Positions 27,099-30,460 of a stretch of 64,000 nucleotides of DNA are shown piece after piece; positions within the stretch are counted from its first letter, which is position 1, and every line of letters starts with the position of its first letter. The notes under the pieces were generated by a model. That model was not told the DNA's origin, made no database searches, and saw only the letters and a program-made list of their open reading frames with translations. This DNA is from Alphaproteobacteria bacterium (GTDB lineage Bacteria > Pseudomonadota > Alphaproteobacteria > RF32 > CAG-239). The stretch spans positions 210,995-274,994 of the forward strand of contig JBKEEF010000012.1 of NCBI GenBank assembly GCA_047975765.1, written 5' to 3'. The translations under genes and the position numbers were made by a program.

Positions 27099-27281
27099 AT
27101 GAACTTATTAAGCAAATTAAAAGAAATCAATAAATATCTTGATAAGCTTCATAATAACAAAGTTTACATTGGTGATGTTATTCCTAATACATGGAAAAAA
27201 ATAGGAAAAGCCTTTCTTATTTTTGCACTAATTATTTTAGGTTTAGTCGTTTTCACAATTATTTTATCTTTTTTCTTTTAA
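27099..27281 (+). CDS. Small membrane protein (60 aa)
   Basis: SD aagga, C-terminal TM helix, converges on terminator at 27298. Confidence 0.55.
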   Translation: MNLLSKLKEINKYLDKLHNNKVYIGDVIPNTWKKIGKAFLIFALIILGLVVFTIILSFFF

Positions 27282-27297
27282 GTATCTTTATTAAGAT

Positions 27298-27333
27298 AAA
27301 ACCCCAGCCAAATCAAAACTAGGGTTGTTTTTA
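27298..27333. terminator. Bidirectional terminator candidate
   Basis: aaaccccag/ctagggttgttttt imperfect hairpin between convergent genes. Confidence 0.5.
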
Positions 27334-27339
27334 TATATT

Positions 27340-27633
27340 CTAACTCAGAAAGTCTTTGATAATTTCACCATAAATATCCCAATGTTGCCATATGAGAATT
27401 AAAGAAATTAATAAAATAGGTAGAGTAGAGATAAAAGAATAAAAGTCCTCATGCTTATAAATTTTATTCCACACTCCTAGTGATACAACAAAAGGAATCA
27501 AAAGAACAGTAGCTATAACAACGTAAAACAAAATAAAAGTTTTTGTAATCGCAATTTCATTTTGGACACTTAATATAAGTGCTACCACAAAAAAAACTAT
27601 AATATAATGTATAAAAAGTAGTATTCTTCTCAT
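27340..27633 (-). CDS. Small 3-TM membrane protein (candidate immunity protein)
   Basis: ATG at 27633 one base after the upstream stop; three hydrophobic segments. Confidence 0.65.
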   Translation of the reverse strand: MRRILLFIHYIIVFFVVALILSVQNEIAITKTFILFYVVIATVLLIPFVVSLGVWNKIYKHEDFYSFISTLPILLISLILIWQHWDIYGEIIKDFLS

Positions 27634-27634
27634 T

Positions 27635-27976
27635 TTATTTATCATTGCAAAATTTATCAAAATTACAACTTGAAGAAAGCATCACACCTCCAGATTTTTC
27701 ACAATATTCCTTGCTGATAGTCAAAATATTAAAATTACATATTTTATATTCTTCATTCCACAAAGCACCAACTTTTTGACAAAGCTCCTTTGTAACAACA
27801 CAAGGCTCTTTCCAACACGGAGGGCAAAATGGAAGTTCCGTTCCTTCTTTACAAATTGTATCCTCAGCACAATCATCTATTGGATTTAAATATCCATAAA
27901 TGAATAATCCAGAAAAAAATAAGAACACAAATAAAAAGAAAATATTTTCTTTATTCACTACAATCTCTTTTTTCAT
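27635..27976 (-). CDS. Membrane-anchored Cys-rich protein (candidate immunity protein)
   Basis: N-terminal TM, then 10 Cys; repeat TKELCQKVG / SKEYCEKSG. Confidence 0.75.
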   Translation of the reverse strand: MKKEIVVNKENIFFLFVFLFFSGLFIYGYLNPIDDCAEDTICKEGTELPFCPPCWKEPCVVTKELCQKVGALWNEEYKICNFNILTISKEYCEKSGGVMLSSSCNFDKFCNDK

Positions 27977-28008
27977 TATTAACCTTTCTGTGTTTATTTT
28001 TGTGATAT

Positions 28009-28611
28009 CTAATCAATAGGCTTTTTTAATAAATCTAAACAATTAGTATCTTTTTTATGTCCATACATAGCTCCTTTAGCATTATTAGACATATCTTTTA
28101 TACTATCAATATAAATATTTCTCCTTCCTCCATATTTTTTAGGGGTTATATTTTTTCTTCCTAAATCAAGAGCTTCTTTTCCTAAAGCAGCAAAAGCTCC
28201 AGTAAATTTCATTTTTCCATCTCCTTTTGCTGGAAGGCAACTTATATATTGATGTTTATTTACGTCAGATACACCTTTCAAAGCATTCACTCTCTTGACC
28301 TCATCATACCAATCTTTAACATTTTCTTTATAGGGTTTTTCTTTAGATACTATTGCATTATTCTTCCTCACTTCATTAATTTTTTTCTCCGTTTCTCCAC
28401 CTGGTTTAATTACTTCATCTACCTTAAGCTTATTGTCTTTTTGAAAACTATTAATTCCTTTGAACAAACCTTCATCCGTGAACTTATTCATTCCAACTTT
28501 TTCATCTACTTTATAATATCCCATATTATTTAGTTCTTTTTTTGTATTCAGAACGTCATCTCCGTCAATATCATCTGTCGTTCTTGAAATCTCTTTTTTC
28601 AACGTTAACAT
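28009..28611 (-). CDS. Peptidoglycan-binding (PG_binding_1-like) protein with SAA-like C-terminal domain; candidate polymorphic toxin
   Basis: DDVLNTKKELNNMGYY, GINSFQKDNKLKVDEVIKPGGET; C-terminal SD...H, KE..D, DS.KD..NN..G; SD ggag. Confidence 0.75.
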   Translation of the reverse strand: MLTLKKEISRTTDDIDGDDVLNTKKELNNMGYYKVDEKVGMNKFTDEGLFKGINSFQKDNKLKVDEVIKPGGETEKKINEVRKNNAIVSKEKPYKENVKDWYDEVKRVNALKGVSDVNKHQYISCLPAKGDGKMKFTGAFAALGKEALDLGRKNITPKKYGGRRNIYIDSIKDMSNNAKGAMYGHKKDTNCLDLLKKPID

Positions 28612-28642
28612 TTTATTTTCTCCATTTTAAATATTTAAAACT

Positions 28643-28738
28643 AAAAAAGAGACACTAGCAGAACCAGTGACTCTCAAATTAAATTTGTTATAACAAAAAA
28701 AGAAGCGTATCTCACAGATGCACTTCTCCCTAGTAACT
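28643..28738 (-). ncRNA. Putative small RNA / leader with two U-tailed hairpins
   Basis: Downstream of TTGACA-17-TATATA; hairpin 28701-28727, AU-rich linker, hairpin 28649-28675; no ORF. Confidence 0.45.
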
Positions 28739-28743
28739 TTCCC

Positions 28744-28772
28744 TATATACACCAAGCCATACAAATTGTCAA
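28744..28772 (-). promoter_or_regulatory. Near-consensus sigma70 promoter
   Basis: TTGACA (28772-28767)-17-TATATA (28749-28744). Confidence 0.7.
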
Positions 28773-28848: not shown

Positions 28849-28925
28849 TGGGGCGAAAGACGGGGCTCGAACCCGCGACAACCGGTACCACAAACCGGGG
28901 CTCTACCAACTGAGCTACTTCCGCC
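28849..28925 (-). tRNA. tRNA-His (GTG) with G-1, C73 and encoded CCA
   Basis: Reverse complement GGCGGAAG TAGCTCAGTTGGTAGAGC...CCGGT TTGTGGT ACCGG...GGTTCGAGCCC CTTTCGC C CCA; all stems pair. Confidence 0.98.
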
Positions 28926-29194
28926 ATAATCTTATGACTAAGAGGTCTTTTACTATAATCGCCAATAAAGTCAAGAAAAAATTTTCTTTGCGTAACTTTT
29001 TTTACTTTATTTTTACTTTGCAACTAAAATCTACTTTTTAGAAATATATATGAAATTATTTCTTAATCACTAAATCAATAAGATACACTCTTTAGTGGAG
29101 AACAAACATAGAACAGCCTTCAGTAGCCCAGTTTTATTAACTTTTTATTTTCTTTTCTCAACTAAAATGAGAGATAGGTTTGGGGAATTTTTTA

Positions 29195-30460
29195 ATGCTT
29201 AAAATTTTTAATTCATATTTAAAATTTATTCTATTTTTTGTGTTCTGCTGCACTGCTACTGATAGCTATGCCAGAAAGACAGCTTCTATTGTCTTAGATG
29301 TTGAGACAGGAAAGACTCTATCTGCAAAGAATTCTGAAGATCTTATGTATCCAGCTTCCCTCACCAAGGTTATGACCTTATATATCACTTTTGATGCACT
29401 TGATAAAGGGCTTATCAAAATGGATGATAAACTCCCTGTTTCCAGAAATGCAACACTTGTTTCACCTTCAAAACTTGGTCTTCGCAAAGGCGAAACAATC
29501 ACTGTTGAAAATGCGATTAAAGCATTGATTGTTAAATCTGCAAATGATTGTGCAGTTGTGTTAGCAGAGGCTCTTGGTCATAGTGAAGGTAGATTTGCCG
29601 AAGCTATGACAGATGTTGCACATGGACTTGGAATGAAACAAACAACTTTTAAAAATGCGTCTGGTTTGCCTAATAAACAACAAAAAACAACGGCTAAGGA
29701 CATGGCTATTCTTGCAGCCGCCATGTATCACCATTTCCCACAATACTACGACCTATTTTCTCTTAAAAAATTCAAATATCATAATGTCACTTACCTAACC
29801 CATAATCACCTTCTTGGAAGATTCAGAGGAGCTGATGGCTTAAAAACAGGTTACACAGCAGCAGCTGGTTTTAATATTGTAACATCTGCAGAAAGAAATG
29901 GAAAAAGAATCATCGCTGTGACAATGGGACATAGAACCTTGCGCGAAAGAGATAATTTTATTGCTCAGCAAATGGAAATAAACCTCAAGAAACTTGGTGG
30001 AATCAAAGAAAGAAAAACACTTCTTGCTGAAATTGAAATTTCTAGAAAACCATTCCATGGACCTTCTTCAATTTTAGAAAAAAAAGAAGAAGTTATCATT
30101 TCTAAGAACGACATAAAACAAGAAACCAAAGAAGAAATCAAAAAAGAACTTAAAGAAGAATTAAAGGAAGAAACTGAAGAGCTTTCTAATAAAAACGACT
30201 GGGGCATTTTTGTAGGCACTTTCTCAAATTATACCAAAGCACAAAACTATGCGAAAAAGTTTAGAGAAAAAGAGAAGCTTGTAGATAAATCCATTGAAAT
30301 TGAAATTGAAGAAGTTCGTGCAGCAATTATTTACAAATCTAAAATTGTAGGCTTTTCTAAAGAAGATGCTGATAAGTTGTGTAATAATTTGAAAAAAACT
30401 CAAAAATCTTGTAGTGTTATCGCAGGCAAAGAAATTCATCTTGCCTATCATAACAAATAA
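29195..30460 (+). CDS. dacA: D-alanyl-D-alanine carboxypeptidase (peptidase S11) with C-terminal SPOR-like domain
   Basis: YPASLTKVMT (SxxK), KSANDCA (SxN), GLKTGYT (KTG); C-terminal WGIFVGTFS...ADKLCNNLK. Confidence 0.93.
   Translation: MLKIFNSYLKFILFFVFCCTATDSYARKTASIVLDVETGKTLSAKNSEDLMYPASLTKVMTLYITFDALDKGLIKMDDKLPVSRNATLVSPSKLGLRKGETITVENAIKALIVKSANDCAVVLAEALGHSEGRFAEAMTDVAHGLGMKQTTFKNASGLPNKQQKTTAKDMAILAAAMYHHFPQYYDLFSLKKFKYHNVTYLTHNHLLGRFRGADGLKTGYTAAAGFNIVTSAERNGKRIIAVTMGHRTLRERDNFIAQQMEINLKKLGGIKERKTLLAEIEISRKPFHGPSSILEKKEEVIISKNDIKQETKEEIKKELKEELKEETEELSNKNDWGIFVGTFSNYTKAQNYAKKFREKEKLVDKSIEIEIEEVRAAIIYKSKIVGFSKEDADKLCNNLKKTQKSCSVIAGKEIHLAYHNK

Follow-up and report, generated by a model that had tools for sequence, protein, structure and literature searches.

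A strongly diverged Prok-SAA domain in a candidate envelope-directed toxin of an alphaproteobacterium

The window analysed here, a 64,000-nucleotide stretch of the alphaproteobacterial contig JBKEEF010000012.1 (assembly GCA_047975765.1, positions 210,995 to 274,994), contains a minus-strand gene (28009–28611) for a protein of 200 residues whose C-terminal half is, judged from its sequence relationships, a strongly diverged member of the Prok-SAA family. This family of domains related to serum amyloid A (SAA) belongs to the SAA-Wnt clade of the Lipocone superfamily, as described by Burroughs et al. (eLife 2025; PMC12419801). This gene opens a run of three closely spaced genes on the minus strand (27340–28611), directly 3' of a tRNA-His gene, and the three probably constitute a toxin-immunity cassette of the polymorphic-toxin type, whose effector would use its Prok-SAA domain to attack an envelope lipid. 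The original prediction, made by eye, had proposed a diverged SAA/DUF6973-like helical domain in a bacterial peptidoglycan-binding protein, with conserved Asp, His, Glu and Asn residues that could form a catalytic or metal site; what it observed is confirmed here and its interpretation is supported, with the qualifications given below.

Results

The gene and its product

The reading frame opens with an ATG at 28611, preceded by GGAG 8 nucleotides upstream, and its product is divided into two domains, whose positions, together with those of the codons discussed below, are as follows.

28009–28611, minus strand: candidate toxin gene, 200 residues, two domains (full-length AlphaFold 2 (AF2) model with pLDDT 92.6)
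28012–28350, minus strand: divergent Prok-SAA domain (Lipocone, SAA-Wnt clade), residues 88–200, 113 residues (hhalign, hidden Markov model (HMM), AF2, Foldseek)
28252–28254, minus strand: codon of H120, predicted active-site His of helix H2 (invariant in both family alignments; aligns to the His of the DKYFH motif)
28174–28176, minus strand: codon of E146, predicted active-site Glu of H3 (invariant; aligns to the RE/KE..D motif of Prok-SAA)
28072–28095, minus strand: codons of D173 to G180 (D-M-S-N-N-A-K-G), H4, with the Asp, N177 and the capping Gly (alignment; motif definition in PMC12419801)
28357–28611, minus strand: PG_binding_1-like peptidoglycan-binding module, the shared 'leader', residues 1–85 (sub-threshold match to Pfam PF01471, homologues, Foldseek)

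The peptides quoted in the original prediction are all present in this frame, within residues 101–185 (positions 28057–28311): YDEVKRVNALKGVSDVNKHQYISCLPAKG covers residues 102–130, AFAALGKEALD residues 139–149 and DSIKDMSNNAKG residues 169–180. Single-sequence searches of Pfam, NCBIfam and the PDB returned no match for the C-terminal half, and elsewhere in the protein only a sub-threshold PG_binding_1 match and noise. No second copy of either the peptidoglycan-binding or the SAA-like module was found within the 64-kb window. The database copy of the protein seems to have been called too short, as 197 residues from the TTG of codon 4, the ATG preceded by a Shine-Dalgarno sequence being situated 9 nucleotides upstream.

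Assignment of the C-terminal domain to Prok-SAA

The assignment was made with an independent Prok-SAA profile of 50 domains taken from the supplement of PMC12419801 and with a core family consisting of the 20 closest members, from which bridging members were excluded. Comparison of the two by hhalign gave 97.6% with an E-value of 3.2e-12 over 98 columns, all motifs and both conserved cysteines being in register. The Prok-SAA HMM scored the domain of the 200-residue protein at 26.7 bits (E 2.6e-10, for one comparison), against a maximum of 8.8 bits among 2000 shuffled sequences, and it matched 27 of 27 family domains with E-values from 6e-24 to 1.6e-6. Against 10 near-identical prok-SAA sequences hhalign gave P 0.007, and 58% when the bridging members were included; of the reference sets, only the diverse published one gave a decisive result.

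The bridging members score on both sides: the C-terminal domain of P0035 reached 29.6 bits (E 9.7e-7) with the Pfam SAA model and 36.7 bits on the 20-member core profile, and for P0057 the core profile gave 42.8 bits and the prok-SAA profile 19.3 bits. Among the 27 members P0035 is also the only one that matches Pfam SAA, at a score below the cutoff of 30.8 bits, the canonical relatives P0005 and P0028 scoring 62–64 bits (P0005, 63.6 bits). In BLASTP the C-terminal half aligned with the SAA domain of P0005 at a marginal E-value of 0.094, the significant full-length match being due to the N-terminal module, and this similarity is therefore taken as a lead and not as proof. Since the bridging sequences, the profile-profile comparison and the predicted structure agree, the 113-residue domain is regarded as a Prok-SAA domain that has strongly diverged.

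The second family named in the original prediction, DUF6973 (PF22322), is the Min-Wnt family, as its Pfam model scores the published Min-Wnt sequences at 96 bits; none of the 27 family members matches it. By hhalign the core family gave 40% against Min-Wnt (E 3e-4, 62 columns), and Prok-SAA itself gave 95%. Since Min-Wnt is the sister family of Prok-SAA, the wording 'SAA/DUF6973-like' amounts to the published SAA-Wnt clade, of which the SAA side holds, below the Pfam threshold, and membership of DUF6973 does not. No SAA chain was found when the family profiles were searched against PDB sequences. The relation to vertebrate SAA is best described, from these profiles, as real but transitive, running through Prok-SAA, because the direct comparison is null and that between Prok-SAA and metazoan SAA is strong (E 2.8e-28). 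The profile comparison that had been suggested as a check was thus positive towards Prok-SAA and fell short towards metazoan SAA and Min-Wnt.

Predicted structure

The AF2 model of the domain alone (pLDDT 95.1, pTM 0.85) consists of helices at residues 94–109, 116–128, 132–155 and 163–185, followed by a short fifth helix at 193–196. In a Foldseek search with this model the top three PDB matches were SAA3 chains and SAA1 was also listed, with TM-scores of 0.42–0.56 over about 100 columns, whereas the two-domain model returned a mixture of peptidoglycan-binding and SAA matches with phiKZ gp144 at rank 6. The helical bundle and the identity of the best PDB matches are those that had been anticipated; however, the Foldseek E-values are not significant, and for this reason the structure supports the sequence result but would be insufficient alone.

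Conserved residues and the predicted active site

Two alignments were compared, one of 27 family sequences and one of 22 sequences restricted to the domain. D116, H120 and E146 are invariant in both; D173 and G180, nearly invariant in the larger alignment together with K119, C125, D149 and C191, are invariant in the domain-only alignment, in which K119, C125, D149, D169, N176, N177, G184 and C191 are conserved to at least 90%. The conserved polar residues follow helical spacing, with D116 four residues before H120 in H2, D149 three residues after E146 in H3, and D169, D173, N177 and G180 in H4, and a conserved pair of cysteines is found at C125 in H2 and C191 in the tail.

The ancestral Lipocone active site has been defined as a His in H2, a Glu in H3 and an Asp in H4, with an acidic residue late in H3, a downstream polar residue and a capping Gly (PMC12419801). 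Residues H120, E146, D173, D149, N177 and G180 match this proposed site by alignment, and each predicted active-site residue is located in the expected helix of the AF2 model. The motif spacing read by eye stands in the HMM alignment, where Y102/E104/K106/N109, D116-x3-H120, K145-E146-x2-D149 and D169-S170-x2-D173-x3-N177-x2-G180 all occupy consensus positions of SAA. The three residues that had been singled out for mutation, H120, E146 and D173, are those of the proposed His(H2)/Glu(H3)/Asp(H4) triad (PMC12419801).

The N-terminal module

Residues 1–85 appear, from sequence and model, to form a three-helix PG_binding_1-like module and are a putative peptidoglycan binder. PF01471 aligned with residues 17–65 at 20.7 bits, below its cutoff of 23 bits, and the same leader module in homologues scored up to 35 bits. 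The AF2 model of the module matched the N-terminal domain of SleB (6tci, TMt 0.83) in Foldseek, and also CtpB and a peptidoglycan-binding protein of C. difficile. Matches to PHROG endolysins were weak and restricted to the peptidoglycan-binding part. Two giant cadherin proteins (P0010 and P0016) were discarded as relatives, their match being confined to an Asp-rich segment, residues 11–49.

Relatives and module shuffling

A word-indexed search gave seven relatives, most of which share the N-terminal module only; one of them, P0005 (208 residues), carries the same module together with a Pfam SAA domain. With HMMER, 1.84 billion representatives were searched exhaustively; of the 870 matches, about 25 were to the C-terminal domain, and in some of these the N-terminal module is missing. 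The loci examined comprised 7 fetched by exact protein look-up and 36 from species-representative genomes. At least 36 species-level genomes from gut and rumen Alphaproteobacteria contain the subfamily, and several genomes have two copies on different contigs. All sources are metagenome-assembled genomes of Alphaproteobacteria from animal gut or rumen except two contigs labelled Bacteroidaceae (L020 and L042), which could reflect mis-binning or horizontal transfer. As with the protein in the window, one relative seems to have been called from too late a start: P0002 is given as 168 residues from an internal Met, and use of the TTG at L001:3893 (L001 3893–4507) yields 204 residues with a complete peptidoglycan-binding module.

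Leaders and C-terminal domains ('tips') are shuffled among these proteins as in polymorphic toxins. The peptidoglycan-binding domain (PGBD) leader, up to 88% identical, carries a GH108 muramidase (P0009, with PG_binding_3), a Pesticin-like lysozyme (P0018), canonical SAA domains (P0005, P0028, P0154 and P0157), short Cys-rich tails resembling Zn-ribbons (P0006 and P0007) and the present domain. Every identifiable tip targets the cell envelope. As a tip, the present domain is in turn joined to the PGBD leader, to phage MuF (P0061) or to one of at least three unrelated leaders, of which two are also found with canonical prok-SAA. These other leaders matched no Pfam or PHROG family, and a PADLOC search gave no match.

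Three leaders recur among these loci (L033, L037, L032, L042 and L008), with the patterns 'KYKSPLGYQ..IDSYGVDHSGF..RDEL', 'FGKRP..WYYLDPRG..FSDMK' and 'MNLIQYI.QADPE', their tips being either the present domain or canonical prok-SAA, and in P0003 the PGBD leader is joined to a further tip of no named family. By their shared peptidoglycan-binding leader, leaderless murein-tethered effectors would make up a whole family in gut Alphaproteobacteria. Some relatives have neighbours resembling those of mobile elements or prophages, namely an ImmA-like peptidase M78 with a helix-turn-helix (HTH) gene, HNH, Rep and DNA methylase genes (L003 693–2220, L004 11–1494, L005 172–1916).

The locus and the partner genes

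The remaining features of the locus are the following.

27635–27976, minus strand: protein of 113 residues with one N-terminal transmembrane (TM) helix and a 10-Cys ectodomain, candidate Imm-SAA-type immunity protein (ectodomain profile, BLASTP)
27340–27660, minus strand: small membrane protein with three TM helices and no Cys; likely start at ATG 27645 or 27633 (overlapping the previous stop codon or 1 nucleotide past it)
27300–27326, minus strand: terminator-like hairpin with T-run at the end of the three-gene operon (from the sequence)
28744–28772, minus strand: promoter-like TTGACA (28772–28767), 17-nucleotide spacer and TATATA (28749–28744) (read from the sequence)
28849–28924, minus strand: tRNA-His, with the cassette directly 3' of it

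The gene for the 10-Cys protein starts 32 nucleotides after the stop codon of the candidate toxin gene. A profile of seven Cys-rich ectodomains from other loci scored this protein at 13.6 bits, which none of 2000 shuffled sequences reached. In BLASTP the ectodomains form a chain, from the 10-Cys protein to the L001 partner (1e-5), from L001 to L007 (3e-5) and from L007 to two L002 partners (3e-7 and 8e-8), with a match of the 10-Cys protein to an L002 partner as well (2.4e-4); the L002 partners belong to Pfam-positive prok-SAA. A word-indexed search of 5.8 billion proteins with the 10-Cys protein returned only the protein itself and no close homologue. In the published architecture 'TM+[TM+TM+]Imm-SAA', the Imm-SAA domain is a helix and four strands held by conserved cysteines (PMC12419801), and the 10-Cys protein fits this description, so that it is a candidate Imm-SAA.

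Of the partners, a small multi-TM protein with 2–6 predicted TM segments is alone in recurring at almost every locus, encoded 13–117 nucleotides downstream of the toxin gene in nearly all of the 34 loci with an intact open reading frame (ORF); about 10 loci have, in addition, a Cys-rich ectodomain, which is joined to TM helices or encoded by a separate gene. In the present cassette the 3-TM protein could contribute to immunity as a second component, or could export proteins in the manner of a holin.

The cassette block has a GC content of 25–28%, as compared with about 35% around it, and its 1.3-kb islet contains no other phage genes and is flanked by housekeeping genes. Between the tRNA-His and the toxin gene (28612–28772, minus strand) there is a leader of about 130 nucleotides with two hairpin and T-run elements, one at 28653–28669, before the Shine-Dalgarno sequence and ATG; it has no ORF and matches no Rfam family, and its role might be that of an attenuator or of a small RNA. 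On the plus strand, an unannotated ORF of 60 residues with a C-terminal hydrophobic helix (27099–27281) converges on the cassette terminator. The next gene past the tRNA-His (29180–30460, plus strand) reads, from its translation, as D-alanyl-D-alanine carboxypeptidase-like; its linker is rich in Lys and Glu, and its C-terminus is SPOR-like.

Discussion

Proposed mode of action

In the proposed mechanism the leaderless 200-residue effector would be held at the murein layer by its PG_binding_1-like module, and its Prok-SAA domain would most likely, by homology to the Lipocone superfamily, attack an envelope lipid at its phosphate-linked head group. As substrate, an undecaprenyl-(pyro)phosphate-linked cell-wall precursor is the best guess by analogy, and it would be cleaved in the periplasm of a competitor. 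In the periplasm of the producer the toxin would be neutralised by the membrane-anchored, disulfide-rich, Imm-SAA-like ectodomain, and the 3-TM protein of the third gene would serve as a further immunity component or as the presumed export route. Since the tips are envelope-directed, the Cys pair is conserved and the partners are membrane-anchored, the evidence points to a site of action outside the cytoplasm. Known activities within the superfamily include the cleavage of lipid II by TelC and the exchange of phospholipid head groups by PTDSS1/2 (PMC12419801). In this reading the domain homology, the conservation pattern, the fold, the gene order and the shuffling of modules are shown, and toxicity, substrate, compartment, immunity and the route of export are inferred.

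Several points weigh against this reading. In the domain itself N176-N177-A-K-G180 fits the sNxxG part of the clade motif sNxxGR, but the Arg is absent (NNAKG is followed by A181, the subfamily consensus being NNxxGxxYG), and the residue after G180 varies across the subfamily. The Pfam SAA model (PF00277) gave no match to the 200-residue protein at E-values up to 10, the hhalign comparison of the core family with metazoan SAA was not significant (P 0.35), and the Foldseek E-values for the SAA matches were 2–6. The N-terminus is hydrophilic, and the protein therefore has no signal peptide; Pfam and NCBIfam searches likewise revealed no recognisable secretion or trafficking domain (no T6SS, T7SS or MuF domain). 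The immunity assignment draws on the 13.6-bit profile score and the Cys-rich composition of a protein with no close homologues, and is weak; the multi-TM partners have no detectable sequence similarity to one another. We are aware of no SAA-clade protein with a demonstrated biochemical activity. The function of the clade is a prediction in the paper that described it (PMC12419801), and the substrate suggested above is extrapolated from distant Lipocone families.

Alternative explanations

The main rival assigns the genes to a mobile element, as its module for lysis or release, in which an endolysin-like PGBD-enzyme and a 3-TM holin would act on the envelope of the producer itself, for lysis or for holin-dependent release of proteins. 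An N-terminal PGBD, a C-terminal catalytic domain and no signal peptide is indeed the layout of phiKZ gp144-type endolysins, the small protein with 2–6 TM segments is the most constant neighbour, and the same leader is carried by true lysozymes; some relatives stand beside ImmA/HTH, HNH, Rep and methylase genes, and one is fused to phage MuF. Yet the weak PHROG endolysin matches, which would suit such a module, are limited to the peptidoglycan-binding part, no other phage gene is present in the 1.3-kb islet with its housekeeping flanks, and two copies occur on different contigs in several genomes. The membrane protein gene follows the enzyme gene, whereas in phage lysis cassettes the holin gene is more often first. 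Shuffling of tips and leaders together with a Cys-rich periplasmic partner is a hallmark of toxin-immunity systems, and a lysis module is consequently considered unlikely. Somewhat less probable still is a non-toxic housekeeping protein of the envelope, either a murein-tethered binder of lipids or retinoid-like ligands or an enzyme that recycles lipid carriers and acts on the envelope of its own cell, with the membrane proteins as functional partners and not as immunity proteins. The patchy distribution, the multiple copies per genome and the low-GC islet at a tRNA speak against a housekeeping role, as do the modular shuffling with lysozyme tips and MuF, the fast-evolving partners and the invariant catalytic constellation; it would agree with the absence of a secretion signal, with the binding of lipids and retinol by vertebrate SAA (PDB 6py0 is among the fold matches) and with the many Lipocone families that are housekeeping lipid enzymes (PMC12419801).

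That the resemblance to SAA is convergent, an unrelated small helical bundle having matched the motifs by chance, is close to refuted and is given very little weight. The missing direct matches in Pfam, NCBIfam and the PDB, the non-significant Foldseek E-values and the null comparison with metazoan SAA, from which this explanation could be argued, are outweighed by the hhalign match to Prok-SAA across the whole domain with motifs and both cysteines in register, by the shuffle control, by the bridging sequences and by the leaders and partner type that are common to the subfamily and canonical prok-SAA.

A bolder version of the toxin-immunity cassette, considered improbable at present, is a self-contained unit of export, toxin and immunity, in which the multi-TM protein would be a dedicated holin-like exporter of a leaderless, murein-tethered SAA-type lipid-head-group hydrolase and the Cys-rich ectodomain the immunity protein.

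Relation to known families and systems

The tables of PMC12419801 already list the architecture 'PGBD + Prok-SAA, TM + Imm-SAA, Pseudomonadota', and the kind of toxin is therefore known; the new element is the subfamily. It shares with Prok-SAA a four-helix core and, in the AF2 model, a short fifth helix, the motifs D-x3-H on H2, [KR]E-x2-D on H3 and D-x3-D-x3-N-x2-G on H4, the N-terminal PGBD fusion, the downstream TM-anchored Cys-rich partner and MuF-fused relatives, and with most Prok-SAA a Cys five residues after the His and a C-terminal Cys. The nearest described Prok-SAA are those of the 'DKYKH' group (MBP3545615.1, MBE6453833.1, MBQ8630633.1 and MBR2136676.1). The subfamily differs from Prok-SAA in its signature SD[EV]NKHQYxSCLAGxGG, in a longer H3–H4 linker with YGG and in the loss of the sNxxGR Arg, and its most constant neighbour is the multi-TM protein instead of Imm-SAA. 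In a quick tree it formed a clade of its own with 23 sequences and a long stem (SH-aLRT 98), and none of the 50 sampled published sequences fell inside it; the position of Min-Wnt inside Prok-SAA in the same tree looks like long-branch attraction and was not used. By string search, none of the 37 supplementary files of PMC12419801 contains the subfamily signatures or the accession HIU53213.1; listed in them is HIU52938.1, which by its accession prefix seems to come from the same Ca. Scatocola assembly. The named members of the subfamily are all annotated as 'hypothetical protein'. What appears to be new, from these sequence comparisons, is thus a divergent Prok-SAA subfamily that is missed by Pfam SAA and seems absent from the published lists.

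Vertebrate SAA is a secreted acute-phase protein associated with high-density lipoprotein, and we know of no enzymatic activity for it. With metazoan SAA (PF00277; PDB 4ip8, 4ip9, 4q5g, 6pxz and 6py0) the present domain shares the fold class, as its best PDB match, and an identical motif spacing; the bacterial domain is set apart by its two conserved Cys, by the fusion to a PGBD and by its membrane-protein partners. Min-Wnt (DUF6973, PF22322), in the same clade, has a similar D-x3-H on H2 and MDLxNNxxG(R) on H4 and likewise provides tips of polymorphic toxins, but carries an 'HE' motif in H3 where the present subfamily has KE..D.

The mechanistic model for the cassette is TelC, the LXG toxin and lipid II phosphatase of Streptococcus intermedius, with its immunity protein TipC (PMC12419801). 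Both would consist of a soluble Lipocone toxin whose target, a lipid-linked wall precursor, is attacked outside the cytoplasm and of an immunity protein in the membrane or periplasm, as far as can be inferred for the present cassette; TelC, however, belongs to a different Lipocone clade and is delivered by T7SS/LXG in Gram-positive bacteria. The modular endolysins of phages of Gram-negative bacteria (phiKZ gp144) and the PGBD-lysozymes P0009 and P0018 resemble the 200-residue protein in layout, with PG_binding_1 at the N-terminus, an envelope-directed domain at the C-terminus and likewise no signal peptide, but its C-terminal domain is predicted to be Lipocone, not a glycosidase, and the window offers no phage context.

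Significance

The molecular role of serum amyloid A is, as we understand it, a question of long standing. The original prediction held that a catalytic site in the domain would bear on the ancestral function of the SAA fold; the idea agrees with the literature, in which bacterial toxins cleaving the head groups of lipids have been proposed as the ancestors of SAA (PMC12419801), and it is for that reason not new, the conceptual advance having been published in 2025. The subfamily described here shows that current annotation misses part of the SAA family. If the cassette were the self-contained export, toxin and immunity unit outlined above, its 113-residue domain would be the smallest tractable, catalytically intact relative of SAA and would permit a direct test of whether the SAA fold is an enzyme. 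With its small size, intact predicted catalytic constellation, confident model and linked partners, the candidate cassette would in any case be a convenient system for tests of toxicity, immunity and lipid cleavage.

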